Origin: a virus
IMG/VR virus record: IMGVR_UViG_3300045988_095878
Location: 1-40,357 of that record
DNA length: 40,357 nt
Strand: one strand, 5' to 3'
Part shown: in pieces, positions 24,805-40,357 of the stretch
Position numbering within the stretch: position 1 is the stretch's first letter
Layout: every line of letters begins with the position of its first letter
Program-made: the position numbers and the translations under genes
Notes under the pieces: model-generated
What the model saw: the letters and a program-made list of their open reading frames with translations, nothing else
What the model was told of the DNA's origin: nothing
The model's database searches: none

Positions 24805-24903
24805 TTATCCAACAAACCCGAGCAAGAAGAAGTACACTCTCCGCAGCTGCTCTCCGTCGAGTCTGCTCAGCATTCGCTCGATGTTTTTAAGCGTTTCTTT
24901 CAT
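24805..24903 (-). CDS. 32-aa microprotein MKETLKNIERMLSRLDGEQLRRVYFFLLGFVG (paralogue of 28624..28722)
   Basis: Hand translation. About 25 nt is nearly identical to the second locus (gaagaagtacac[t/c]ctccgcagctgc). The RBS is weak. Confidence 0.4.
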   Translation of the reverse strand: MKETLKNIERMLSRLDGEQLRRVYFFLLGFVG

Positions 24904-25468
24904 AGCTGCTCTTTTTTCTTCTGGCGACATATGACTCCAACCCTCCTTCAGATTTTCCAAATAAGATAAAATCGCCTGGTTTTCTTTTTTCTTTTGGTCT
25001 AATAACGCGCATACCGGCGGTGTATGGCTTCCAACCTTCTCTGATCCGCCTTTCCAAATCCTCTTCGTCCCACTCTTTGCAATACTGTTTAGCCTCTTTG
25101 CGTGTAAGTCCCGTTTTTTCTACGACCGCCCACCCAGATTGTCCCGCCACATACCAAACTTCATATGCGCGAGGCTCTTTTTTTCGCCACGTCGCAGGAC
25201 GCCTCGCCCGCTTTCTGTTCTCATCAAGAGGAATCCACCGGCAATTATCCGGCGTGTAATCACCGTCCGGATCGACTCTGTCAATCGACAAAGCCGGTGC
25301 ATAGCCGTTCTTCAAGGACCATGCTTTGAAAGCCTCAAAATCGTGTTCCCACTCATCGCATACGCGAATCCCTCTATCGTGATACCATGCCGCCGCAGTA
25401 TGCTTTGGGTTGTTACATCGTTGCTTCATGCAGCTCCATATGTTATAGAGCCGTTTTTCATTATCCAA
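24887..25468 (-). CDS. HNH-endonuclease-like DNA-binding protein; first gene of the leftward (lytic) transcript
   Basis: YNIWSCMKQRCNNPKH...YHDRGIRVCDEW...LSIDRVDPDGDYTPDNCRWI is a motif set often annotated as phage HNH endonuclease. The proposed start is TTG 25468, after aaggtggg, because the track start (25525) is itself the -35 box of a promoter. Confidence 0.6.
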   Translation of the reverse strand: MDNEKRLYNIWSCMKQRCNNPKHTAAAWYHDRGIRVCDEWEHDFEAFKAWSLKNGYAPALSIDRVDPDGDYTPDNCRWIPLDENRKRARRPATWRKKEPRAYEVWYVAGQSGWAVVEKTGLTRKEAKQYCKEWDEEDLERRIREGWKPYTAGMRVIRPKEKRKPGDFILFGKSEGGLESYVARRKKSSYERNA

Positions 25469-25496
25469 ATCGCACCCACCTTGCTTGTCTATTGCA

Positions 25497-25525
25497 AATA
25501 TACGCTTGCGAGTGGCTATTGTCAA
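25497..25525 (-). promoter_or_regulatory. Leftward (lytic) promoter
   Basis: On the minus strand: TTGACA (25525-25520), 17 nt, TATATT (25502-25497). Confidence 0.65.
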
Positions 25526-25606: not shown

Positions 25607-26014
25607 ATGTCCGTAGCAACCAGAACAAAGGAGCTTCGCAAGGCTCTTGGCCTCACGCAGCAAGAGTTTGCAAACCGTCTTCACATTACGCGCGGTGCCG
25701 TATCCAACTGGGATCTGGATATTACTTCCCCTTCGGATGCCGCAATCTCACTAATCTGCCGTGAGTTCGATGTTAACGAAGACTGGCTCCGTTCCGGCGA
25801 AGGAGAAATGTTTGAGCAGCTCACGGAGGACGAAGATCGCGCCCGCTTCTTTGGTTCTCTCGCCAAAGGGGACGCCTCGCCCGAAGTACTGGCGTTCATC
25901 GACGCCCTGCGGAAAACACCTGAATCCGCTATCCGTCCCGCTCTCCAGTTCATCCGTGAGATCTACGAATCCTACAACGCCCTGCAAAAAGAAAAAGGAA
26001 GCGAATCGAAGTGA
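25607..26014 (+). CDS. CI-like XRE-family repressor
   Basis: KELRKALGLTQQEFANRLHITRGAVSNWDLD is a canonical XRE HTH. It is divergent from the lytic operon. ATG 25607 lies 8 nt after ggagg; the track start is GTG 25598. Confidence 0.85.
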   Translation: MSVATRTKELRKALGLTQQEFANRLHITRGAVSNWDLDITSPSDAAISLICREFDVNEDWLRSGEGEMFEQLTEDEDRARFFGSLAKGDASPEVLAFIDALRKTPESAIRPALQFIREIYESYNALQKEKGSESK

Positions 26015-26028
26015 TCCGCTTCCTTTTT
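25997..26028 (+). terminator. Intrinsic terminator overlapping the repressor stop
   Basis: ggaagcg...cgcttcc followed by ttttt. Confidence 0.6.
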
Positions 26029-26029
26029 C

Positions 26030-26058
26030 TTGTTTTTTCTATCAATTTTTGCTATATT
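26030..26058 (+). promoter_or_regulatory. Promoter of the nuclease moron
   Basis: TTGTTT (26030-26035), 17 nt, TATATT (26053-26058). RBS aaggaggg precedes ATG 26097. Confidence 0.5.
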
Positions 26059-26096
26059 CTCCTTGTCTCCGCGTATAAAGCAAGGAGGGTGTTAAA

Positions 26097-27323
26097 ATGT
26101 TCGACTCCGCGTTTTGCATCATTTTCTTGTGTATTTCCATCATTCTATTCGTCCGCTGGAAAAGCAGCTGCGCCGCCGTTGATGAATGGAGAAAAAAATA
26201 CACGATTTCTTTTGCCGAATGGAAAGCCCAATATGCCAAGATGGAAAAGGATTTGCTCGAAGCAAAAGGCTCCCCTACTGTACGTGCCTTAAAAAACTCC
26301 GAATTATTCGCTCGAGAACAGAAATTATTTGAAGATGAACGTAAGCTCGAAATGCAAAAGCAAACGTTTGACCAAAATATCCGCAAGATCATCTATGACA
26401 AGTCTCAGCAGTACCCTTACATTGCGGCGCAGATTGCAGACCTGTATTGTCTTTATGATGAACGCCTTGCCAAGAGCCTCGCTCAGAAAGCTCGCCCCGC
26501 TGTCCGCGCATCCGAAGACGTCGCTCGTATAGCCAGAGAAAAGCGCGAGCTTACACAGCGGGTCAAGGCGCTTGAATATCAAATCTCTGAATATGAGGCG
26601 TTTTTCCCGCAGCTATCCTCTATAGCCGATCTGACTACGAGTGAGCTTTGTGAGGCTTCTCAATCTTCTGAGGATCGCGATTCTCTGCGCGACTGGCTTT
26701 CCGATTCAGAGTATGTGTCCCTATCAGACGAAAGAAAATTCCAACTTGCTTTGGACCGGTGGCGGCGCAGGCCGCGCAGCAACTGGCAAGTTGGCCGTGA
26801 CTTTGAGCGATACATCGGCTACCTGTACGAAATGAACGGATGGAAGGTGTCTTTCTTCGGTGCGCTGAACGGCAAAAACGACCTGTGCCGCGATCTCATC
26901 GCGCAAAAGAACAGTCAAACTCTCATCATCCAATGCAAACGCTGGGCGAAGGAGAAGACGATCCACGAAAAGCACGTGTTTCAGCTCTTTGGCAGCGTTA
27001 TGAGCTACGGGATTGAGAACCCCAGCTCATCTCCCAAAGGCTTGCTTATAACTACCTGCCCGCTCTCAGACGTTGCCAAGCAGTACGCCCATGCTCTGAA
27101 CATAGACTTTGAGCAGAATTATCACTCTCGCGATCTTGACTCCTATCCGGTTATTAAATGCAACATCGCAAAAGAAGGCGAGAAGATATTCCATCTTCCG
27201 TTCGATCAGCAGTATGACCGTATCCGCATAAGCCCAGAGGCCGGCGAGAAATACGTCTCCACCGTTCGTGAAGCTATGGACGCCGGTTTCCGCCGAGCGT
27301 ACCGCTGGCACGGCAGCGACTGA
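26097..27323 (+). CDS. Membrane-anchored coiled-coil protein with a C-terminal Mrr_cat (PD-(D/E)xK restriction endonuclease-like) domain
   Basis: N-terminal TM segment FCIIFLCISIILFV and a long coiled coil. The core reads WQVGRDFERYIGYLYEMNGWKVSFFG...NDLCRDLIAQKNSQTLIIQCKRWAKEKTIHEKHVFQLFG. The region is visibly AT-richer than the rest of the phage. Confidence 0.75.
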   Translation: MFDSAFCIIFLCISIILFVRWKSSCAAVDEWRKKYTISFAEWKAQYAKMEKDLLEAKGSPTVRALKNSELFAREQKLFEDERKLEMQKQTFDQNIRKIIYDKSQQYPYIAAQIADLYCLYDERLAKSLAQKARPAVRASEDVARIAREKRELTQRVKALEYQISEYEAFFPQLSSIADLTTSELCEASQSSEDRDSLRDWLSDSEYVSLSDERKFQLALDRWRRRPRSNWQVGRDFERYIGYLYEMNGWKVSFFGALNGKNDLCRDLIAQKNSQTLIIQCKRWAKEKTIHEKHVFQLFGSVMSYGIENPSSSPKGLLITTCPLSDVAKQYAHALNIDFEQNYHSRDLDSYPVIKCNIAKEGEKIFHLPFDQQYDRIRISPEAGEKYVSTVREAMDAGFRRAYRWHGSD

Positions 27324-27432
27324 CGCCCTGCGCAAGTCGTCCGATACCACCATCCGCTCCGCGCTTGAGTTCGTCTGCAACGTCTACGAATCCTACAACG
27401 CCCTGCAAAAAGAAAAAGAGAACGGAGATTGA
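27322..27432 (+). pseudogene. Orphan 3' remnant of a second repressor allele (36 codons)
   Basis: DALRKSSDTTIRSALEFVCNVYESYNALQKEKENGD compares with the repressor C-terminus DALRKTPESAIRPALQFIREIYESYNALQKEKGSESK. 35 nt are identical (25963-25997 = 27384-27418). Confidence 0.8.
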
Positions 27433-27447
27433 CCTCCGTTCTCTTTT
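27418..27447 (+). terminator. Intrinsic terminator after the repressor remnant
   Basis: gagaacggag-attgac-ctccgttctc-tttt. Confidence 0.6.
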
Positions 27448-27657: not shown

Positions 27658-27678
27658 TCTTTATAGGTGGGTGTACAG

Positions 27679-28581
27679 ATGGACTTAAAGAAACCGCTGC
27701 CCTTTGATGAATTGGCGGACAAGATGGAAGAGCATCACCTTGTTGTGAACGACCGCAGCGAAGCTATCCGTGTTCTCCAGCATATTAGCTATTACCGCTT
27801 GTCCGGTTACCTTCTTCCATATAGGCTTTCCCAAAATGACAGCGATTTGAAAGATGTCGCTTTTGAAGACCTTATGGCGATTTATAATTTTGACTCTGAT
27901 CTCCGCAACTTTCTTCGGAAATACATAGAAATCGCAGAGGTTTACTATCGCACGCAGATCTCTCATTGGTTTTCCCTTTCACGCTGCAGCGCTCCTCCGC
28001 ACGATCAGCATTACGATGATCACAACTTTTATCGTAAGCAGAGCTATCACGATGTAATGCGTAAATACGAAAGTGACAAGGCCGAATACTACGGGGACAG
28101 TCTTGTCATGCGCCACCACAGAGAGCGATACGGCGGACACGAGCCTCTTTGGGTCATCACGGAGATACTTTCGTTTTCCAATCTCTCAAAGCTGTACAAC
28201 TCAATGTATTACTCCGATAAGGATCTGATTGCCAATGCTGTCGGCACCGGCCGCGAAGTGCTTTCCAACCATCTTCATTGCATCACCATTCTTCGCAACA
28301 AATGTGCTCATGCCGCGAGGCTTTACAATACGAAAATGTCCAAGCCCGTGCAGCTTTCTGCATACTTTCTGCGGGCGAATCCGGAAATAAAGAACAATTC
28401 CTTGTTCGCCTACATTATCATGCTCCTCAAACGTCTTCCGGACGATCCTACAAAGAAAGATTACATCGCAGAGTTTACCCGCATAGTCGAGAAGTACCGC
28501 GAAACCGTGGACATGAGGTTTATCGGCATACCGGATAAGTGTAATTATAACGCCGTTCTGGCTCAAAATAGGTATTCATAA
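27679..28581 (+). CDS. Abi_2 family (AbiD/AbiF-like) abortive-infection protein
   Basis: LPFDELADKMEEHHLVVNDRSEAIRVLQHISYYRLSGYLLPYR...AIYNFDSDLRNFLRKYIEIAEVYYRTQIS is a typical Abi_2 N-terminus. The gene is AT-rich. Confidence 0.85.
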   Translation: MDLKKPLPFDELADKMEEHHLVVNDRSEAIRVLQHISYYRLSGYLLPYRLSQNDSDLKDVAFEDLMAIYNFDSDLRNFLRKYIEIAEVYYRTQISHWFSLSRCSAPPHDQHYDDHNFYRKQSYHDVMRKYESDKAEYYGDSLVMRHHRERYGGHEPLWVITEILSFSNLSKLYNSMYYSDKDLIANAVGTGREVLSNHLHCITILRNKCAHAARLYNTKMSKPVQLSAYFLRANPEIKNNSLFAYIIMLLKRLPDDPTKKDYIAEFTRIVEKYRETVDMRFIGIPDKCNYNAVLAQNRYS

Positions 28582-28773: not shown

Positions 28774-29018
28774 ACAACAAACTTTTATCTTTTTTGCGTC
28801 GTTCTTTGGCATTTGTTCTATAGTGTAGGCAAGGCGCCCGGGGTGATCGTGCCACAAGTCCGCCCCGGGCGTCCGCCGCAGGGCGTCCCGCTCGCCCTGC
28901 TGTGCCTGTATCGTAGCATACTCTCCCGGATTCTGAAACCGAACGCCTTGTGAGCGAGCCGGAGTATAGTGTTTTACCCCTCGGATATATCCCGGCTTGC
29001 CACTGGAATAACGAAAGG

Positions 29019-29549
29019 ATGGAAACCATGAACGAAAACGAAATGGACGTGTTGAAAAACCGCTGGAGAGAGGCGAAGAGTACGCGCACGTTCTCGGACA
29101 TTGCCGAAGCCGCCGATCTGTCGCCGAGCACCGTGGAGTATGCTTTCTCCTTCAGATCTGCAAACCCTTGCATTGATACGGTCGTGCGCATCTCCCGGGA
29201 GCTGCACGTCTCGCTCGACGATACCTTCGGCATCCTCTCGCCGAGCAATCGTTCGGAGACGGAGCTTGCCCGTCAGGACGCCGCCCACTGGAAAGCGCGG
29301 TGTGAGTCCGCCGAACGGGACGTCGAATATCTCCGGACGGTCCTCTTGATGCTCGGCGTGTTCTTTCTCGTCCTCGTCGTCTGGTGTGTAACGATGGATC
29401 TTCGCTGCACGGAGATTGGTTTCTTCCGCGGGCGGTGGAGCTTTGGCGCCGTGTTCTCGATGCTCTGCGTCGCCGTCGCCGCAGTGATGGTTGTTCTCGT
29501 CATCGTCCGCGTCTGCCGCCGCCACAGGCAGCGTAAGGAGCAGAAATAA
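29019..29549 (+). CDS. Membrane-anchored HTH protein (XRE-like N-terminus, coiled coil, two TM segments)
   Basis: STRTFSDIAEAADLSPSTVEYAFS...IDTVVRISRELHVSLDDTFG is HTH-like. The TM segments are VLLMLGVFFLVLVVWCV and FGAVFSMLCVAVAAVMVVLVIV. The start is ATG 29019 or 29028, after aaagga. Confidence 0.6.
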   Translation: METMNENEMDVLKNRWREAKSTRTFSDIAEAADLSPSTVEYAFSFRSANPCIDTVVRISRELHVSLDDTFGILSPSNRSETELARQDAAHWKARCESAERDVEYLRTVLLMLGVFFLVLVVWCVTMDLRCTEIGFFRGRWSFGAVFSMLCVAVAAVMVVLVIVRVCRRHRQRKEQK

Positions 29550-30694
29550 TGAAGTGCTGCAGCTGCTCCCGCGAGATCCCGGAAAACTCGCTGTACTGCA
29601 ACTGGTGCGGGAAAAAGCAGTCAAAAACAAAAAAACGCCGGCGCAAACGCGCCGACGGCTTCGGTTCTGTATGGAAACTGCAAGGGAAGAGATCCCGCCC
29701 ATGGGTGGCACAGAAGGACGGTCAGACCGTCGGGTACTATGCGACTGCGAAAGAGGCAGACGAAGCTCTGTCCCTGCTCGTGCGTACTCCTCTGACAGAG
29801 AGATATAATTATACTCTCGCGGAAGCGCACGATCTCTGGCAATCCGAAAAGTTTCGTACCCTCGGTGAAAAAGGGCAGGAAGGATATTGTTCGGCATGGA
29901 AGCACCTTGCACCGCTGTACAGCACAAGACTTCGAGAAATTCGTTCCGAAGATTGGCAGAGCGCCATCGACGAAATGCGAGGGAAGAGCCGAAGTACCTG
30001 CGACAAGGTGAAACAGCTTGCGAGCCAGATTTCCAAATGGGGGATCAGAGAGGAAATTCTCCAAGTGAACTACGCGCAGTTTATCGTTCTTCCGGCGGAA
30101 AAGAAAAAGCCCGTCGTTACATTTACGCCGGAAGAGCTGGCAAAGCTCGCCGCCTCGCAGAGCGATACGGCGGACATTATTCTTCTTCTCATGTATACCG
30201 GAGCGCGTATCAACGAATTGTTCACCGTCCCGCTGGAATGTTGTTACGACAAATGGATCCTGTGGGGCAGCAAATCCGATGCCGGGCGTGATCGCAGCAT
30301 TCCAATCCCCGACATAATCCTTCCGCGCTACACACGCATCCGGCAGCGTGCGCTCGATACCGGCGGCACGCGCTTGATTGATGGGTATTCCGGCGCTCAC
30401 GATGTAAGCAACTTCCGCAAGAGAGACTATTATCCCCTTCTCGAATCCCTCGGTATTGAGCGTAAAGTACCGCACACTTCAAGGAAAACTTTTATCTCTG
30501 CCAACGTCGAAGCTGGAACACGCCCAGAGATCCTGCAAACCGTCGTTGGACACGCCGATTATGATACGACCTTGAAATACTATACCAAATTTTCCCACGA
30601 AACGCTCTCCGCGGCAGTGAACAAGGCAGTCAGTTGCCAACAAATCCCCAACAAAAGCGAAAAAGCCGAAAATAAAAAAGCCCGTAATCCTTGA
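29549..30694 (+). CDS. int: Tyrosine recombinase (phage integrase) with an N-terminal zinc ribbon
   Basis: TGARINELF (Arg), HTSRKTF (HxxR) and GHADYDTTLKYY (His/Tyr) are present. The N-terminus is MKCCSCSREIPENSLYCNWCG. The start overlaps the upstream stop (TAATG), and attP lies immediately downstream. Confidence 0.9.
   Translation: MKCCSCSREIPENSLYCNWCGKKQSKTKKRRRKRADGFGSVWKLQGKRSRPWVAQKDGQTVGYYATAKEADEALSLLVRTPLTERYNYTLAEAHDLWQSEKFRTLGEKGQEGYCSAWKHLAPLYSTRLREIRSEDWQSAIDEMRGKSRSTCDKVKQLASQISKWGIREEILQVNYAQFIVLPAEKKKPVVTFTPEELAKLAASQSDTADIILLLMYTGARINELFTVPLECCYDKWILWGSKSDAGRDRSIPIPDIILPRYTRIRQRALDTGGTRLIDGYSGAHDVSNFRKRDYYPLLESLGIERKVPHTSRKTFISANVEAGTRPEILQTVVGHADYDTTLKYYTKFSHETLSAAVNKAVSCQQIPNKSEKAENKKARNP
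30631..30653 (+). repeat. Arm-type repeat, left copy (inside the int 3' end)
   Basis: cagttgccaacaaatccccaaca compared with cagttaccaacaaatttccaaca at 30858: 20 of 23 bases identical, same orientation, flanking the tRNA-like core. Confidence 0.6.
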
Positions 30695-32573: not shown

Positions 32574-35500
32574 TTACCTTGAACTCGGCAGCTTGCCGTG
32601 CTTCAAAAAGTAGTCCAGCGGGCTGCCCCCCTTGATGGTGATCGTCCGGTTGCCGTGCTTGATCACGGTGTCCACGGCTTTCTCCGTCGCCTTGCGGATG
32701 TCCGTTCCGCCCGACATCTTCGCAAAGTCCGCGATGGCGTTTCCTTTCGTTCCGTTGGTCGAGACCTTCGCCTCCGGAATTACGTTCTTCGCCGCCTTCG
32801 GCGCGGCGGGAGCCTTGAGCGCCTTTGCCTTTCTGCTGCGCCGTCCGCCCCTGCCGGAGCCGCTGCCTCCGTTCCACGGCTGATACCGCAGGCTGTTCTC
32901 CTTGTACCCAGCGGCAATGTACAGCGCGTCCTTCTGCTCGGCGGGAATGTCGAGCGAGTTGATGTACTCCACGACCTTTTTCTTCTTTGACCCGGAAATG
33001 CTCTTGCCGTTCTCGTCCTTGTCGGCGTGCATATCCTTCGTGGCGAAATAGTAGTCGTAGTAGGTGTCGTAGCTCACGCCCTTACCGTAGGCGGTGCGTG
33101 CCTTGTCGTACACGTCCGAGCTGTACGTTTTCAGCGCGTACTCCGCGCCGAAGATCTCCCGGTTGATCTCGCGGTAGACGATGGCGTCCATGCGGCTCTC
33201 CGCCTGCTCCTCTGTGATGTCGTACTTCTCAGCGAACTCCGCAATGGCGGCGTCGTTGTCGGAGGAAAGCTCCGGATGCTCCTTGAGATACTTGTTCACC
33301 GCCTCGCGGTACGGCTCCGACTTGGCGATGATCTCCCTCTGCCGCTCAATGAGCTGCGCCTTCAAAGCGCGGACGAGCCGGTTCTTTTCGCCCTTGGAAA
33401 GCGTCTTGTCGTTCTGTATCTCGCGGATCTGCGCGTAGTAGTCGTTCACCGTGTCCCCGGCGTGGGAGACATACCGCCGCGTGATTTCCGCGCCGAGATC
33501 CCCGTCGTTCTTATCGTACTTGAGATCATCCAGCAGGTCGTAGTACTCGCTCGTCACGCGGTTGTTGCTGGTTGTGTCGATGGTGAACGCCGCCTTCGGC
33601 GCAGCGAGCAGCGGGTGCGACGCGCTCGTCGCCGGCGTAATGTGCGGCAGGAGGATGTCTCCGATGACGCCGGAGTACTGATCCAACAAATAATTGATCT
33701 TCTTCGGCGACAGGTTGAACGTTTTTCCGATCCATTTGGAAAGCTCGTCCGTTTTCTCGTCGTACCGCTCGCCCGGTCGGTAATTCTGCAATCTCTCGCT
33801 CTCGATGTTCCCGCCGTACCACGTCGTGCCGGGGTTGTCCGAGTTGAGGAGCTTTGTCTGCGTCCACGCCGTCGCGATGTTCTGATTGAAGATGTCCGTC
33901 GGGGCGACGTTGCTTTTGATTACCTCGAACACGTCGGAAAACTTCACGTCTCTGCCGTTGAGCTTCTCCTGCCCGTACACCGCGGCGGTACTCAGCACGG
34001 CAATGGCGCGTCCCTTCGGGATCTTGATCCAGTAGCCATTTCCCCATTTGATGAGATAGTAGTTCGCTTTCGTGTTGGCGGGGATGTCGTCCCACTCGTC
34101 ATCGTCGCCGTGCATAAGACCGTTCAACAGCAGCGGCGGCAGATTGATAAGCGCCGCTTTCAGAATGAGCGTCGCAGCCGCTTTCACGTCCCGCCGCTGC
34201 ACAATGTCCGTGGCGTTCCGGATAAATTTGTCGAACCCCTGCACGGACGGGTTGAGGAACGGCACAAAATACCGGTTGAGCGCCTTCGTCACGGTGCCGC
34301 CGCGGGCAAAGTTTGTCGTGATGTCCGCCGCGCCCAGCATCGCCTCCATCAGGTCGTTCTGCGTGAATTTCCCGGTTTTCACTCCGTTCACCGTCTTGCT
34401 CCCGCCCTTGTTGGCGAGGATGGTCATAAACTCCGCAAGACGGGGCGCAGCTTCGATTGCCTGTCCGAACGACTCATATTTTGCCCACACCTTCCCCGCA
34501 AGGCTTTTCGGCTCCTTCACCATGCCGGTCGTATAGTCCAGCATGGAGGCGTAGGAGCCGCCCAGCGCCTTGTACTGCTGCCAGATTTCGCCGTTCCTTG
34601 CGATCTGCACAATCGCCACCGGGTACATTTTTTCCCACGTGGTCCAGTCCGTGGAGTAGAACCCCGCGTCCTGCCAGTCGCGCACGGCGTTCCGCACCAT
34701 GAAAAACGGGTTGTACCCTGTGCAGAGAGCCTTGAACAGGTCGTTGAGCTTTTTCAGCCCCTGCGCCACGGGGAGATTGCCGTATTTGTCCGGCTGGAAC
34801 GCATTCAGCGCCTGCGTCAGCCCCTCGTCCATCGTGATGTCGTAAACCTTTCCGTCGCGCTTCACCGAGAAGATGTTTTGGAATACCGGCTGGTAATCCT
34901 CGTCGCTTTCGATGACGGCGTCCGTCGGCGTATACTCGCTTTCCGCGACATTCCAGATATACTTTTCCACGCGCTTTTTGTTGCCCTCGTATTCGTCCAG
35001 CAGCGCGGCTCCGAGCTGGTTTATGCCGGCGTTTCGCATCACGGATACCGTTTTCCGGCTCAGTGCGGTGTGCAGCGGCAGCAGCACAGCGTCGTCGCCT
35101 ACAGCTCTTCCTATGGCGTTCGACACGGTAATCCCGCCGTTTTTCCGGGCTTTTCTCCCCGCTCTGCTGTTTGTTCCTTCTCGCAGCGTGGGAACGTAAT
35201 GCGGGTAACGCTTTTGCAGATTCCGAGCATACTCCGCCGTAATGAGTCCCGCTCTGACGCGATAAGCAAGCAGGTCGTCGGAATACTTGTATACTTCCTT
35301 TGCCCATTGCTTGAACTCCGGGTTGGTATCCTCCAGCAGCTTTGCCGTTTCGCGGCTTTCTTCCGCCGTCACTTCGTATCCGAACACGGGCTTCAGTCCC
35401 TGCCGCTCCGCAATGCTTCTCTGCTTTTCCAGCTCCAGCACATACGCGGCGGCGGTCGCAACGGACGTTATCCTGCGCGGCTCGCCCTTGTGGGCAGCAA

Positions 35501-38500
35501 GGAACACTTCATGCGCCTCCGCCCGCACGACCGGCGAATCGCCGTCATATTCCACGATCTGCCGCAGCTCGTTTTTAGACAGCTCCCGGAGCTGGGGGAA
35601 TTTGTCCTTCACCCATTTAAGATTTTCTTTGATTTTCGCTATCTCCGCGGAGTTGTCGTACATCATGCGGTCTACGTTGTGCATATGGTAGAGATACAGC
35701 TGGAAATCCCGATACTTTGCCTCATTCTTCCGCATCGGTGCAAGCGTGTCCGCAAGACTTGATCCGATCTTGTGTCCGTCGATGTCGGTGCGTGCGCCGC
35801 CCTTGGTGATCCAGTTTCCCGCTCGCTGCGAATACGCCCCGGCGTTGAAGTAGTAGCCCTCCAGACTTTTGTTTCCGGTCGCCTTGGCGATCCGCCGCAC
35901 CGTGTCCCCGGCGTTCACGAACATCCGCATAGCGCCGCTCGAAATGCTCTCCATATTCTCCCGGAAGCTCTTCGCCGTCTTTGTGACCTCGGTAGTGATC
36001 TTCCCTGCCGTTGCCTCGTCCGTCGTGGCAGCTTCCAGTCTTGCCGCCGTCCGTTTTTTCTCCTGCTCGGCGGCAGCCGCATCTTCGGAATCTCCGAACA
36101 GCTCGGCAATGCGGGCATCCTCCTCGGCGGTTCTTTCCGCCTCCAGCTTCTTCGCTCTCTGGAAATTTTCCTCCGAGAAATTTTTGTTTGCCTGTGCATC
36201 GACGTACTCTGCGGCGTTTCGTGCCGCCACTTCCTTCAAGGGGCTGGACTCCTTGTATATCTGCCTCCCCGCGTGCTGGATCGTCGCGGTATGATTGACG
36301 CCGAGCGCGTCGGATTCCAGCTTGACCTTGTACACGGTCGTCCTCGGCTGATCCATTGAGATCGGCGCTGCCACTTCGGACTTTCCGCTGCTCATCAGCT
36401 CGCGGTATACCTGCCCCGCACCCTTGTCCGGCGCCGGGCGTCCATACCCGCGGTTGGCTCTGGCAAGCGTCTCGTCCTTTCTCATCAGCCGGGCAGCTTC
36501 CTGCCGGTCCTGCTGTGCCATCTTTCGGAACCATTCCCGGCGCTTGTCGGCTTCGTTCTGCTCTTCCACCTCTACGCTCGCCCGCCCGGAAGAAGCCTTC
36601 TGCACCACACCTCCGAGCTCGCTTAATTTTTTCCCTGTAATCTTGACACCGTCTTCGGCATATGCTATATTGCCTATAGAGCCATACGGTGGTTGGCGTG
36701 ACGGGAATTGTACCCTGAGCTGCATCAGCCACGTATCGGCTCTATTTTTGTTTGTGTCAAGGTACAAAAGTTCCGAGTTGTTGATCAGGTTTTGCAGGTT
36801 TCCGACAGATCTTCCGTAAGCGCTCGTCACGAGGGAAAACTCCGCTTCCGTCCTTCCGCCCGGCTTTGGTGTTAGCTCCAACGCGACCATCAGATTGTTT
36901 CCGTTTTTTGCCTTTTCTTCGCTCAGCAGCACGATGCTGTCCGACCGGGTAAGTGACTTCATAATCAAAACCGGGTTTTCGAGAATATCCGGAACCTTTT
37001 TGATGACATCCGCGGTTACTTCCGGGTGTTCCTCAAAGATTGTCCCGATCTTGCTTTTCCGCATATAGATGTTGTCCGTCCTTGCGCCGATGCTTTGCAG
37101 CGCCTCGGATGTCGTTCCCACGCGGAAATAGCCCGGCGACGTACTCAGCGCATCCACCGGCGTATTCTTCACCCAGTCGTCTACGTTCTTCCCGAAGTTC
37201 TCGTCAATGCTGTAGCTTGTCGTGTACCCATCCGCAAACACGGTATCCGCGTCGCCCAGATCGGGCGGCGTTTTTTTGCGCTCCTCGGCGGTCATCCGGC
37301 GGCGTGCGGCGGTGTCTCTCGCCTCGATCTCCCCGGCGGTGTTCCAGTAGAACTCTTTCACCGCTTCGCTCGCGTCGCCGAGAATGCGGTCGTACCGGTT
37401 CAGCTTTCCGAACCATTCCTTTCCGTAAAGCTCCCTGTACAGCTCGTCCGAGCGCTTCTCCAGCTCGTCCATTCGGCTTTCATCGTAGAGCACGGAGCCG
37501 TCGAGCATCGCTCCCATCTCGCGTTCAGTGCTGCGGTACTCGTCGTACAGCGCCCGATCCTCTGCGCTCAGACCATGGAGAAGCCGCGCCCGATTATCCC
37601 GATATTTTTCCGTCGCTTCGTTGTAGGTCGCCTCCCGGTTCCAGTATTGCGGGCTTGCGCCGCCGGTAAAGCCTTCCGTATTCTGTATGACGTGCTGGAG
37701 CTCGTGCAGTACAACGTCGGTCTCTTCCCCGAACAGAGAATCGCTCAGGATGATCGTGTTGTCCCGCTTGCTGAAATAGCCCTTTTGTCCATCCGGCAGA
37801 GAGTCGAACCTTACTGTCACGTTTTTCAGATCGGGGTATGCTTCAAAGAGCTTCGGATGGTTTATATACTCTGCCAAAGATAAATCATTTTTCCCCGCAG
37901 ACGCGCTCATTTTTCCTTCCAGCGCTGCGGCGAAGTTCTCAAACTCGTCCCCCAACACATCGGTCAGCTGCTGATAGGTTTTATCGCTGAACTCACCTCT
38001 TTCTCGCTGGCTTACGTACTCTCTGAGCATTCCGCGCTGTTCATTCGTTAGCCCGTCACCCGTGAGATTCTTGAACCGCGCCGTGTATTCCCGCAGAGCC
38101 TGAGTTTTTTCACGTTCCGACACGTAGGCTTTCCGAGTTTTCATCCCGGAATCGTCGATTTCAAAGCGCCATTTGCCGTCTCTGCCGCGATACCAGCCCG
38201 TTTCCTGCCGGATGGTCTCATTGTCCGTCCCGCTCTTTTCCAGCGCTTCTGCGCGGCGCAGGGCGGCGCTGTCGGCGGTTCTGGCGTTGATTCCCGCCGC
38301 ACTCGCTTTGCCCGGCGGTCCCGTCGTCTCCTGCTGCGTCTCGGTTCTCTGAGCCGGGGCGCTTTTTTGCGTCTCGGCGCGGATGGCGTCGCCGATCTCG
38401 CCGCGACCGTAGAAGAAATTCAGCCCCGCATAGGCGTCCGCCGCGATCTCCTCGGTGAGCAGCCGCTCGATTTCGTCCACGCTCATGGTCTCAAAATCAT

Positions 38501-40357
38501 AGATGCCCGCGTAGGCGTCCCGGTAGCTCTCATACATGGCGTCGTACTCCTCGGCGGTCATGCTCTCGCGTACCACGTCGTCCGCCGTCCGGATCATCTC
38601 CTCCGTGGCGTTTGCGTGGAAAAGCTCATGCTCCGCGATCAGCGCCGGGGAGACGGCAAGCCCGCTCCCGGTTTTCGCGTCCACGCGGAAATATACCCTG
38701 CCGTTTTCCACATAGCCGTTCACCGCCGTGCCGTTGATGAACATCTCGCCGCGGAACGCCACCGGCTCCATTCCGGCGGCAGTCACCTTGTCATACGCCG
38801 CCTGCGCTCTGGTGTCGAGCCGCTGCGCGTCCACGAGCGTGATCGTCTCGTTCCCGCCGCCGCGGATGCCGAGCTGCGCCGGGGTTACTTGCCGTAGATC
38901 CGCCTGCGTGTACGCTCCCACGCCTCCCGGAATTTCTTTTCCGCCGCCGGCGAGAGCTTGCGCTCCTGCTTCGGCGGCAGCTTGTCCGCCGGCGCGGAGA
39001 CCAGCATACCCGTTTTCTCGTCCCTGATAAGCGCTCTGTCCATTGTTCAAATCTCCTTCCGTATTCTGGATTTCCTGCGCGGCAGCCGCGACAGGCGACT
39101 GAGGGATTGTCGCTTCCTCTCTCTGCGCCGTATTGGCGGCTGTAGGCGCGTTTTTTGTCTGGGCAGTATAAGTACTCTCCTTCGCATCGGAACGCGCTCC
39201 TGCCTCCATCTGCTGCGTCATATACGCCGCAGCGCGTTCCATGTCTTTCCCCGTGCCGACCTTTGCCCGGAGTTCGTCCGCGTTCTTCGCGTCCACCAGC
39301 TCCGCCAGTGCGTACACCATGCCGGGGTCATCCGTTTTCGCGTCCCGCATCATCCGAACGACGTCCTGCGCCGTCGTGTCCAGCTGCTCCGCCACATAGT
39401 TAACGTATTGTTTATTGCTGTAGCTCTGTACGGTGCTGCTGCCGACGGAAGCAAGTGCGCCGCCGAGGAAGGAAAGCCCCTCCTGTCCGAGAACGGCGGC
39501 GAACGTCGCAAGCTCCGGGTGTTCCTTCTGGAACGGCGTGCCGTTCTGCTTGTAATACTCCAGCATCTTGGGAATGCCGCTCTCCTGCGTGCCGAAAAGC
39601 GCGTCCACCACGAGGTTTACCGCGCCGTTCGCCGCGTCCGACATCACTTCCTCCACGCCCTCCGGAGCCATAGCCAGCAGCACGCTTTTTATGAGATTCG
39701 TCGGGTTCTGTTTGAAGATTTTGATCGCCCACTCGCCGCCGACGGCTTCCGAGGCAAATTCAATGGCGCCGCGGGTAAGTCCGAGCGCGAGCGCCCCCTC
39801 GTTGGAATAGCCCTTTTCCTTGCTCTCGGCAATGGAGAGGGACGCCACCTCCGAGGACATCGCCAGCGAGCCGATGACGTTCGTCGCCGACATCAGCGCA
39901 GGTCCGGAAAAACCTGCCGCTTCTCCGAAGCCTTTTGCGACCAGCATATTCACAGCGCTGTCCGCGGCGCTCATCGCCGTGTTGTAAACAAAGCTGCCGA
40001 CCTTGCCGCCGAGACCCGGGTTTGTCTCCTCGATGTGTGATGCCGTGTCTCCGCGCAGCTCCTGCGTGATGTTGCTCGGCTGTCTCCACTTGGAATACGG
40101 ATTGATCTCCTGCCCGCGCAGCGACCGGACCGCGTCCTCTCCCATGGCGATTACGCTTGTCAGATTCCGCACCGGCTGCGCCGCAACGGTCATGGCGCTG
40201 GCAAGCGCTCTCGTCCCCGCGTTCTTGCCCAGCGCTTCCACAGTGCCGCGGTTCGCTCCGGAAAACCACTGCTTGTCCAGCTCCGGCTCGATGTCGCTCA
40301 GAAACCGGTTGGCGGCTCTTCTGCCCTGCGTGGCGTAGAGGTAGTTGTATACGCCGA
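32574..40357 (-). CDS. Main body of the giant polyvalent-type virion protein; about 2,761 aa in total after joining to 1..601
   Basis: The frame is uninterrupted. Two HExxH motifs are present (HELFH 38616-38630, HELQH 37692-37706). There is an LPD-like WYRGRDGKWRFEIDD, a GEIEARD motif and a MuF_C-like segment (about 36747-37139). The track start at 40241 is an internal GTG. Confidence 0.85.
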   Translation of the reverse strand, partial: GVYNYLYATQGRRAANRFLSDIEPELDKQWFSGANRGTVEALGKNAGTRALASAMTVAAQPVRNLTSVIAMGEDAVRSLRGQEINPYSKWRQPSNITQELRGDTASHIEETNPGLGGKVGSFVYNTAMSAADSAVNMLVAKGFGEAAGFSGPALMSATNVIGSLAMSSEVASLSIAESKEKGYSNEGALALGLTRGAIEFASEAVGGEWAIKIFKQNPTNLIKSVLLAMAPEGVEEVMSDAANGAVNLVVDALFGTQESGIPKMLEYYKQNGTPFQKEHPELATFAAVLGQEGLSFLGGALASVGSSTVQSYSNKQYVNYVAEQLDTTAQDVVRMMRDAKTDDPGMVYALAELVDAKNADELRAKVGTGKDMERAAAYMTQQMEAGARSDAKESTYTAQTKNAPTAANTAQREEATIPQSPVAAAAQEIQNTEGDLNNGQSAYQGRENGYAGLRAGGQAAAEAGAQALAGGGKEIPGGVGAYTQADLRQVTPAQLGIRGGGNETITLVDAQRLDTRAQAAYDKVTAAGMEPVAFRGEMFINGTAVNGYVENGRVYFRVDAKTGSGLAVSPALIAEHELFHANATEEMIRTADDVVRESMTAEEYDAMYESYRDAYAGIYDFETMSVDEIERLLTEEIAADAYAGLNFFYGRGEIGDAIRAETQKSAPAQRTETQQETTGPPGKASAAGINARTADSAALRRAEALEKSGTDNETIRQETGWYRGRDGKWRFEIDDSGMKTRKAYVSEREKTQALREYTARFKNLTGDGLTNEQRGMLREYVSQRERGEFSDKTYQQLTDVLGDEFENFAAALEGKMSASAGKNDLSLAEYINHPKLFEAYPDLKNVTVRFDSLPDGQKGYFSKRDNTIILSDSLFGEETDVVLHELQHVIQNTEGFTGGASPQYWNREATYNEATEKYRDNRARLLHGLSAEDRALYDEYRSTEREMGAMLDGSVLYDESRMDELEKRSDELYRELYGKEWFGKLNRYDRILGDASEAVKEFYWNTAGEIEARDTAARRRMTAEERKKTPPDLGDADTVFADGYTTSYSIDENFGKNVDDWVKNTPVDALSTSPGYFRVGTTSEALQSIGARTDNIYMRKSKIGTIFEEHPEVTADVIKKVPDILENPVLIMKSLTRSDSIVLLSEEKAKNGNNLMVALELTPKPGGRTEAEFSLVTSAYGRSVGNLQNLINNSELLYLDTNKNRADTWLMQLRVQFPSRQPPYGSIGNIAYAEDGVKITGKKLSELGGVVQKASSGRASVEVEEQNEADKRREWFRKMAQQDRQEAARLMRKDETLARANRGYGRPAPDKGAGQVYRELMSSGKSEVAAPISMDQPRTTVYKVKLESDALGVNHTATIQHAGRQIYKESSPLKEVAARNAAEYVDAQANKNFSEENFQRAKKLEAERTAEEDARIAELFGDSEDAAAAEQEKKRTAARLEAATTDEATAGKITTEVTKTAKSFRENMESISSGAMRMFVNAGDTVRRIAKATGNKSLEGYYFNAGAYSQRAGNWITKGGARTDIDGHKIGSSLADTLAPMRKNEAKYRDFQLYLYHMHNVDRMMYDNSAEIAKIKENLKWVKDKFPQLRELSKNELRQIVEYDGDSPVVRAEAHEVFLAAHKGEPRRITSVATAAAYVLELEKQRSIAERQGLKPVFGYEVTAEESRETAKLLEDTNPEFKQWAKEVYKYSDDLLAYRVRAGLITAEYARNLQKRYPHYVPTLREGTNSRAGRKARKNGGITVSNAIGRAVGDDAVLLPLHTALSRKTVSVMRNAGINQLGAALLDEYEGNKKRVEKYIWNVAESEYTPTDAVIESDEDYQPVFQNIFSVKRDGKVYDITMDEGLTQALNAFQPDKYGNLPVAQGLKKLNDLFKALCTGYNPFFMVRNAVRDWQDAGFYSTDWTTWEKMYPVAIVQIARNGEIWQQYKALGGSYASMLDYTTGMVKEPKSLAGKVWAKYESFGQAIEAAPRLAEFMTILANKGGSKTVNGVKTGKFTQNDLMEAMLGAADITTNFARGGTVTKALNRYFVPFLNPSVQGFDKFIRNATDIVQRRDVKAAATLILKAALINLPPLLLNGLMHGDDDEWDDIPANTKANYYLIKWGNGYWIKIPKGRAIAVLSTAAVYGQEKLNGRDVKFSDVFEVIKSNVAPTDIFNQNIATAWTQTKLLNSDNPGTTWYGGNIESERLQNYRPGERYDEKTDELSKWIGKTFNLSPKKINYLLDQYSGVIGDILLPHITPATSASHPLLAAPKAAFTIDTTSNNRVTSEYYDLLDDLKYDKNDGDLGAEITRRYVSHAGDTVNDYYAQIREIQNDKTLSKGEKNRLVRALKAQLIERQREIIAKSEPYREAVNKYLKEHPELSSDNDAAIAEFAEKYDITEEQAESRMDAIVYREINREIFGAEYALKTYSSDVYDKARTAYGKGVSYDTYYDYYFATKDMHADKDENGKSISGSKKKKVVEYINSLDIPAEQKDALYIAAGYKENSLRYQPWNGGSGSGRGGRRSRKAKALKAPAAPKAAKNVIPEAKVSTNGTKGNAIADFAKMSGGTDIRKATEKAVDTVIKHGNRTITIKGGSPLDYFLKHGKLPSSR
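39092..39109 (-). repeat. Partial (3' half) copy 4 of the two-hairpin repeat, inside the giant gene
   Basis: caggcgactgagggattg is identical to 2132-2149. It is translated as IPQSP in the same frame as in the portal. Confidence 0.7.
40259..40357. repeat. Terminal direct repeat, second copy of 1..99
   Basis: The 99-nt sequence is identical on direct reading. Confidence 0.9.

Follow-up and report, generated by a model that had tools for sequence, protein, structure and literature searches.

The window analysed here, the whole of IMG/VR virus record IMGVR_UViG_3300045988_095878 (40,357 nucleotides, nt), carries in the lysogeny module of a temperate phage a gene for a membrane-anchored nuclease of the Mrr_cat type. 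Its protein of 408 amino acids (aa) joins an N-terminal transmembrane (TM) anchor and a variable helical stalk to a conserved helical domain specific to the family, a PD-(D/E)xK nuclease domain and a C-terminal 'sunset' mini-domain. The catalytic residues are conserved among its relatives, and the anchor is found throughout the family with a predicted topology that places the nuclease in the cytoplasm. By analogy with the SNIPE and Shield systems, we propose that this is a lysogen-expressed, membrane-confined DNase that would cut incoming phage DNA, a reading to which we give close to an even chance.

The open reading frame (ORF) is present exactly as the initial annotation had claimed, and most of the anatomy described there has held up. 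Over the first 19 residues (MFDSAFCIIFLCISIILFV) the 19-residue Kyte-Doolittle mean is 2.58, and this stretch is helical in the AlphaFold2 model, in agreement with the proposed TM helix; a Kyte-Doolittle scan found no second hydrophobic segment in the 408-aa protein. The model, based on an alignment of 104 homologues, has a mean predicted local distance difference test (pLDDT) score of 88.6 and shows helices at aa 3-55 and 60-99, a helical region at aa 107-224, an alpha/beta nuclease core at aa 229-339 and a small beta-rich C-terminal unit at aa 353-395. What had been described as about 200 aa of coiled coil is indeed helical, but it is really a variable stalk of about 80 aa (aa 23-99) followed by a conserved domain (aa 100-232). 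This middle domain has no Pfam match even at E ≤ 10, DUF4041 included, and Pfam searches at the same threshold with the isolated stalk, middle and C-terminal regions returned nothing meaningful.

The assignment of the nuclease core was likewise correct. Pfam PF04471 (Mrr_cat) covers aa 233-333 (E = 3.8e-12, 46.8 bits against a cut-off of 21), with Mrr_cat_2 as an additional, weaker match. Against the PDB, Foldseek matched the core only to PD-(D/E)xK enzymes, namely AF1548 (1y88), MspJI, AspBHI, NucS/EndoMS, Hjc and Cdn1, and the probability of 1.0 for 1y88, MspJI, NucS/EndoMS and Hjc identifies a restriction-endonuclease-like fold. At the sequence level, the PDB gave chance-level matches only, whether it was searched with the complete protein or with a C-terminal-domain profile. 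Residues E237, D262, D266, Q279, C280 and K281 are invariant across the 104 sequences; the active site appears intact in the family, and the protein is probably a DNase.

A TM-like segment lies in the variable region of 88 of the 104 close homologues and in 135 of the 162 loci that were fetched. Several of the 27 loci without a TM of their own are truncated or borderline, and at least 11 have a tightly coupled gene upstream on the same strand, overlapping or at most 14 nt away, whose small product carries a TM helix at its N-terminus. The partners in L060, L063, L072 and L083, which represent four phyla, are mutually homologous and have a C-terminal CxxC...C...C in common; a Topo-I-type zinc ribbon (C4) was confirmed by Pfam in the L063 and L073 partners, and five upstream neighbours match it in all. 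As far as these sequences tell, the anchor is supplied either in cis or in trans, the latter being a natural split version, and about 97% of complete family members keep it in one of the two ways. The description of a single-gene system fits this phage but not those relatives that split the anchor into an upstream gene.

To predict topology, lysines and arginines (K+R) were counted in the 15 residues before and the 15 residues after the TM. In 165 single-TM homologues, with the TM at most 15 residues from the N-terminus, the mean is 0.08 before the TM and 3.58 after it, and in 52 two-TM homologues the C-flank is also positive (K+R 3.42). By the positive-inside rule, both classes indicate that the conserved core is in the cytoplasm, and the nuclease is predicted to face that side of the membrane.

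The family is large and its N-terminus evolves rapidly. A word-indexed search with the nuclease protein retrieved more than 4,257 clusters at 90% identity (E ≤ 1e-3), and an exhaustive HMMER search with the core (aa 100-408) retrieved 839 clusters at 50% identity at E ≤ 1e-30 and 1,275 at E ≤ 1e-10. The conserved core is always C-terminal, and the N-terminal region that precedes it ranges from about 70 to 430 aa. One homologue (P0003) has a core 87-99% identical to that of the window protein, but its stalk is 34% and its TM 18% identical, and this combination of a near-identical core with a divergent N-terminus indicates that N-termini have been exchanged. In P0006-P0009, P0011, P0016 and P0109, the long N-terminal region before the core contains a SWIM zinc finger (PF04434), together with a TM in some of them.

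In a scan of one genome per species, 332 relatives were found among 185,579 species representatives, with 37-50% identity over aa ~65-408. They occur in Bacillota, Pseudomonadota, Bacteroidota (Hymenobacter), Cyanobacteria, Planctomycetota, Chloroflexota, lineages of the Candidate Phyla Radiation (CPR) and a few archaeal metagenome-assembled genomes. The family is also present on 94 viral contigs in IMG/VR and on four Hymenobacter plasmids in PLSDB, where the homologues are annotated as 'restriction endonuclease'. On one such plasmid, from Hymenobacter sp. DG25B (NZ_CP010057.1, 2188-8977; L171), the homologue is flanked on one side by an unannotated protein of 415 aa that has a nuclease-like 'EVEKS' motif and on the other by a DUF4238 protein. 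An FRG-domain protein is close by, and metal-resistance genes surround this small defence-like islet. Our literature search on the TM and Mrr_cat architecture found no description of the family. The initial annotation regarded a membrane-tethered restriction-type nuclease as unusual, a view that is now dated because ShdA (PMC10270631) and SNIPE (PMC13190303) are precedents established by experiment; the concept is known, while the family, its helical domain, the sunset module and the split-anchor variants have not been previously described.

The C-terminal module noticed earlier is real. It is nearly invariant throughout the family (IFHLPFDQQYD...GFRRAYRW), and NCBIfam NF051437 ('sunset') is matched by 37 of the 37 members tested (best E 8.6e-9); the window protein itself scores 18.1 bits as a whole and 23.8 bits as an isolated domain, against a curated cut-off of 27. 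AlphaFold2 models the isolated module with a pLDDT of 83.7, and its top three fold neighbours in the PDB are structures of the DNA-bound N-terminal domain of Ada (1u8b, 1zgw and 1wpk), weak matches with a TM-score of about 0.5 and E of 0.2-0.8. The two domains have the motif I-[FY]-[HC]-x-P ... E-A-x-x-x-G-F-R in common. This motif and the weak likeness in fold are a hint, not a proof, that the sunset module may bind nucleic acid. The zinc-binding cysteines of Ada are absent from the sunset domain. A stand-alone copy of 59 aa (42% identity) is gp605 of Bacillus phage G, and NCBIfam also lists sunset variants of ribosomal proteins L17, L4 and L20. A literature search for 'sunset domain' returned nothing relevant.

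Bases 1-99 of the window are identical to bases 40259-40357, which means that the window is a circularly closed temperate phage genome of 40,258 bp, without host flanks, and not an integrated prophage as the initial annotation had it. It is identified as a phage by matches to a portal protein, large terminase, structural proteins and an HNH endonuclease, all on the minus strand. The lysogeny module is on the plus strand, in the order repressor, nuclease, AbiD, a helix-turn-helix (HTH) protein with a hydrophobic segment, and integrase, and the nuclease gene thus shares its strand with the lysogeny genes and is opposite to the lytic genes. The neighbour directly upstream is a repressor with HTH_3 and Phage_CI_repr matches, as expected from the earlier placement of the gene beside cI. 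The ORF finder starts this repressor at GTG 25598; ATG 25607, which gives 135 aa, is likely the true start because orthologues of 135 aa exist in L167-L170 and in L006, the locus of an 86%-identical homologue of the nuclease. The same phage was recovered from other samples (L167, L168 and L169), where the nuclease is 100% identical and AbiD is intact, split into two ORFs, or absent.

The nuclease gene behaves as a cassette with low GC, a repressor scar and its own terminator. Its GC content is 49.7%, and 41.8% in the first 300 nt, against 60.5% in the lytic and structural genes, so that it is AT-richer than the backbone, as had been noted. A remnant copy of the repressor 3' end begins at the nuclease stop codon (Table 1), and it is nearer to the repressor allele of L006 than to the resident one. 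From its sequence, the remnant is a recombination scar, apparently of a nuclease cassette inserted into, or swapped within, the repressor region, and its position directly after the stop codon indicates that the gene arrived as a cassette. The ribosome-binding site reported upstream of the start codon is present. A promoter of its own, also claimed earlier, is plausible for the nuclease gene, since an extended -10 element can be read by eye behind the likely terminator of the repressor gene and the whole repressor-nuclease intergenic region is conserved in L006. A terminator scan lists a shorter form of the repressor-end hairpin, and the hairpin is kept in L006.

Neighbouring genes were called crudely in 162 loci and classified with Pfam and iterated hidden Markov models (HMMs). 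Position -1 or -2 is taken by an HTH/S24 repressor in 28 of 75 genome loci and in 47 of 78 viral ones. On the downstream side, 53 loci have an integrase at most six genes away, and in 23 it is the direct neighbour; an upstream integrase occurs in only two. The genome loci are nearly all from Clostridia, and in Clostridia prophages the polarity from cI through the nuclease and variable defence cargo to the integrase is kept. For example, a 45%-identical homologue (P0092) present on more than 100 contigs is followed by variable SLATT, ThsB-TIR or DCD cargo between repressor and integrase, in a prophage inserted beside yabP/yqfD. Over all loci, the genes between nuclease and integrase include Abi_2 (4 loci), DCD (3), ThsB_TIR (2), M78/HTH pairs and Gp49-type toxins. 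The nuclease gene is a recurrent, and often the sole, occupant of the repressor-integrase slot, which in Firmicute phages is the home of genes for superinfection exclusion, ltp among them (PMC3952083).

We also considered whether the upstream HTH protein and the nuclease form an antitoxin-toxin pair, and ruled this out. In the genome set, 10 of the 21 HTH proteins encoded immediately upstream carry Peptidase_S24, which identifies them as true cI/LexA-type repressors, and the pairing is absent outside prophages.

Table 1. Features of the nuclease gene, its protein, the surrounding lysogeny module and the split-anchor loci of relatives
Feature	Position	Strand	Basis	Mean identity to window protein
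Complete gene for membrane-anchored Mrr_cat nuclease, 408 aa, ATG start	26097..27323	+	ORF list, Pfam, AlphaFold2	
TM anchor, N-terminal (aa 1-20), predicted N-out/C-in	26097..26156	+	Kyte-Doolittle mean, family charge statistics	10%
Helical stalk, variable (aa 23-99)	26163..26393	+	AlphaFold2 helices	10%
Family-specific helical domain, conserved (aa 100-232)	26394..26792	+	Many invariant positions	42%
Mrr_cat PD-(D/E)xK nuclease domain (aa 233-339)	26793..27113	+	Pfam, Foldseek	56%
Catalytic codon E237	26805-26807	+		
Catalytic codon D266	26892-26894	+		
Catalytic codon Q279	26931-26933	+		
Catalytic codon K281	26937-26939	+		
Sunset mini-domain, C-terminal (aa 340-405)	27114..27311	+	NCBIfam NF051437, AlphaFold2	59%
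Hairpin and U-run closing repressor gene, likely intrinsic terminator	25990..26039	+	RNAfold -22.4 kcal/mol, then UUGUUUUUUC	
Candidate extended -10, TGcTATATT	26050..26058	+	Read by eye, kept in L006	
Shine-Dalgarno AAGGAGG, 8 nt before ATG	26082..26088	+	Read from sequence	
Remnant copy of repressor 3' end, 97 nt, from nuclease stop codon	27322..27418	+	78% identical to 25901-25997	
Strong intrinsic terminator ending nuclease transcript	27414..27447	+	14-bp stem and T-run, -28.4 kcal/mol	
cI-like repressor	25598/25607..26014	+	HTH_3 5.2e-11, Phage_CI_repr 1.1e-4, phrog_8/phrog_4 repressors	
AbiD/Abi_2 abortive-infection gene, separate defence cargo	27667..28581	+	PADLOC AbiD 6.4e-73, Pfam Abi_2 2.7e-43	
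HTH protein with hydrophobic C-terminal segment, 199 aa	28950..29549	+	Weak phrog_4 repressor match	
Tyrosine integrase, end of lysogeny module	29549..30694	+	Phage_integrase 4.3e-8	
Split-anchor partner gene	L060 5390-5698			
Split-anchor partner gene	L063 5453-5956			
Split-anchor partner gene	L072 5466-5924			
Split-anchor partner gene	L083 5522-5821			
Further split-anchor loci	L073, L080, L081, L085, L156, L157, L162			

Some further features of the phage were observed. The gene at 28950..29549 overlaps with its stop codon the start of the integrase gene (ATGA), and orthologues of 168-173 aa are found in the same place in L006 and L167-L169. The best promoter-like site of the region (25497-25525, minus strand; TTGACA-17-TATATT, 11/12) points leftward toward the HNH endonuclease and the lytic genes and is likely the early lytic promoter of the genetic switch. 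This site overlaps the TTG start that the ORF finder gives to the HNH ORF (24887-25525), so the true HNH start is probably further downstream. An ORF of 2,555 aa (32574-40241, minus strand) with MuF_C, LPD38 and LPD23 domains is a 'large polyvalent protein', a kind carried by phages and conjugative elements, and L006 has a comparable giant ORF after its integrase. In L170 (253-2595), the repressor-nuclease pair adjoins an adenylosuccinate synthetase gene instead of the usual early phage genes, and this may be an integrated or rearranged copy. A tRNA scan of the window found none, and an attachment site was not located.

The closest functional parallel is SNIPE (PD-lambda-1) of E. coli, which combines a TM anchor, DUF4041 and a GIY-YIG nuclease (PMC13190303). 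PhoA/LacZ fusions established that SNIPE faces the cytoplasm, and deletion of its TM makes it toxic; SNIPE cuts DNA during injection and not after prophage induction, and its homologues, 59% of them with one TM, have hypervariable N-termini and a conserved nuclease (PMC13190303). In both families one protein combines an N-terminal TM and a cytoplasmic middle domain with a nuclease at the C-terminus, both have an N-terminus that is hypervariable in length and sequence (here 10% identity, against 42-59% in the core) next to a conserved nuclease, and both include a minority of members that have no TM of their own. By analogy, they may also share a logic in which membrane location separates self from non-self. 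The nuclease differs, however, being Mrr_cat here and GIY-YIG in SNIPE; DUF4041 and a PADLOC PD-Lambda-1 match are both missing, and the window protein has the extra sunset domain, occurs in phages of Gram-positive Clostridia and is encoded beside cI. Homology to SNIPE was rejected at HMMER sensitivity because DUF4041 is not matched at E ≤ 10, and a remoter homology below that level is possible. ShdA of the Shield system of Pseudomonas, with TM and RmuC, is alone sufficient for immunity and degrades DNA in vitro (PMC10270631). It is, like the window protein, a membrane-bound nuclease of the restriction-endonuclease-like superfamily, and some Shield subtypes have accessory partner genes that recall the split TM partner. 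In contrast, the window protein has no RmuC (PF02646) match in the whole-protein Pfam results and its other accessory domains are different, and Shield resides in chromosomal defence islands of Pseudomonas rather than in phage lysogeny modules.

Other systems share single elements with the nuclease. E. coli Mrr and Type IV enzymes belong to the same catalytic family (PF04471) with the E...D...(Q/E)xK signature, but the winged-helix recognition domain of Mrr is replaced here by the TM anchor, the stalk and a novel helical domain. Ltp of TP-J34 (PMC3952083) and Sie2009 have in common with the nuclease the repressor-integrase slot, the lysogeny strand and membrane association, and probably also expression in the prophage state and interference with incoming DNA. 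The Ltp and Sie proteins are small, non-enzymatic and block injection at the outer face, whereas the window protein is a nuclease predicted to face the cytoplasm. To our knowledge, there is no sequence relationship between them. ZorD of Zorya is also an Mrr-like nuclease that acts at the membrane against injecting DNA, and its nuclease domain gave the sole PADLOC v2 match of the window protein, a weak one (E = 3.7e-4, profile positions 951-1050 of 1071). SNF2 helicase and zorABC neighbours are missing here, the neighbours being a repressor and AbiD, and the anchor is within the nuclease protein itself, whereas ZorD is recruited by a motor complex. Zorya, Kiwa and SNIPE have been classed together under 'membrane localisation' in a recent review (PMC12904381).

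In the mechanism that we propose, the TM helix (N-out/C-in) and the stalk would hold the helical domain, the Mrr-type DNase and the sunset module near the inner face of the membrane, and this confinement would keep the DNase away from the nucleoid and the resident phage genome. The DNA of a superinfecting phage would cross the membrane beside the enzyme and be cut on entry, amounting to superinfection exclusion by cleavage. The hypervariable anchor and stalk may set localisation or phage specificity, and the conserved helical domain may act as a gate for the nuclease or as a binding site for DNA or for the injection machinery. A wider formulation is possible, if somewhat doubtful in our judgement: the family could be a second, independently evolved 'injection-site nuclease', pan-bacterial and favoured by phages of gut Clostridia, with an anchor exchangeable in cis or in trans, and with helical and Ada-like sunset domains that recognise the entering DNA or the tape-measure channel.

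Defence or exclusion at the membrane, already suggested in the initial annotation, is supported in part by the presence of AbiD, ThsB-TIR and DCD genes in the same slot and by the conserved position, the anchor, the catalytic residues and the hypervariable N-terminus. Several points weigh against it. The PADLOC analysis that had been recommended called AbiD beside the nuclease, and for the nuclease itself PADLOC v2 made no defence-family assignment beyond the weak ZorD match and found no PD-Lambda-1. Outside Clostridia prophages, the 136 neighbours are mostly housekeeping singletons with few defence genes, which makes guilt by association weak there; the defence genes among these non-prophage neighbours (PglX/Type IIG, reverse transcriptases, BrxHI and DUF4238) are a modest and uncontrolled count. 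A consensus sigma-70 scan found no promoter in the 82-nt gap at 26014-26097, so the claim of an own promoter stands on the element read by eye and on the upstream terminator, and not on a consensus site, and we infer expression in the lysogen solely from the position and orientation of the gene. No partner at the injection site was identified, and the Gram-positive hosts lack the ManYZ route of the SNIPE example. A tblastn search of 50,697 GenBank phage genomes (INPHARED) with the whole protein gave no match, and hence there is no cultured phage model. The DNase activity, the protection against phages and the cleavage during injection, and indeed every statement made here on the function of the family, are likewise what we infer.

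Among the alternatives, the nuclease could be an abortive-infection effector that is harmless at the membrane until infection releases or activates it, by envelope perturbation, proteolysis or a phage trigger, whereupon it would degrade host and phage DNA and the cell would die. This would agree with the role of Mrr_cat nucleases as suicide effectors in Avs and STAND proteins (PMC9122126) and with the toxicity of TM-less SNIPE (PMC13190303), from which release would be expected to be lethal; the neighbouring gene is an Abi gene, AbiD, and the conserved helical domain could serve to autoinhibit the nuclease. Yet the Pfam results contain no sensor, protease or signalling domain, anchors supplied in trans argue for stable tethering rather than release, and the killing of its own lysogen is costly for a phage gene, though prophage Abi genes are common. 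We consider this explanation unlikely. A Type IV, modification-dependent enzyme of the Mrr kind, anchored only incidentally and telling self from non-self by DNA modification, seems rather improbable. Its catalytic domain would be the expected one, the Foldseek matches include the modification-dependent MspJI and AspBHI, RefSeq names homologues 'restriction endonuclease', and such enzymes need no methyltransferase partner. However, Pfam finds no domain that would read DNA modification (Mrr_N winged helix, SRA or another), either in the whole protein or in aa 60-232 at E ≤ 10, and neither the retention of the anchor, in cis or in trans, by about 97% of the family nor the fast-evolving N-terminus would be explained.

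A role outside defence, in DNA processing for the phage or the host, appears quite improbable to us, whether as an RmuC-like recombination or repair nuclease or as a factor that acts on the DNA of the phage itself during entry, induction or packaging. RmuC is built to the same general plan, with a TM, a coiled coil and a PD-(D/E)xK domain, many non-prophage homologues are found amid housekeeping genes, and a core so highly conserved between phyla (37-50%) is reminiscent of a housekeeping enzyme. On the other side, the distribution is patchy (332 matches in 185,579 species representatives), prophages and plasmids carry the gene, its transcription runs with that of the lysogeny genes and against that of the lytic ones, and swapped N-termini are found on near-identical cores, all of which fits an accessory, horizontally moving gene. 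Barely credible is an extracellular, surface-anchored nuclease whose C-terminus lies outside the cell and degrades environmental DNA. A single N-terminal hydrophobic segment would allow it, and outward-facing membrane nucleases exist in Firmicutes and mycoplasmas, but the charge bias is strongly opposite (K+R 0.08 against 3.58), there is neither a positively charged n-region nor a lipobox, and variants with a long N-tail have two TMs, which keeps the C-terminus inside. On the positive-inside statistics, a secreted or outward-facing nuclease was ruled out.

If the proposed membrane-confined DNase is confirmed, location-based discrimination would turn out to have arisen more than once, each time with an unrelated nuclease (GIY-YIG for SNIPE, RmuC for Shield and Mrr_cat here), and it would operate in Gram-positive gut anaerobes, which are poorly explored for phage defence. 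Should the family prove to be a second injection-site nuclease, location-based discrimination between self and non-self would extend to Gram-positive hosts and to a different nuclease chemistry. Confirmation of the nuclease role would also provide the first functional context for the sunset mini-domain. The split-anchor and swapped-N-terminus versions are ready-made experiments on the contributions of anchor and stalk, and the gene would, if its role is confirmed, be a marker with which the lysogeny modules and defence hotspots of Clostridia prophages could be annotated.

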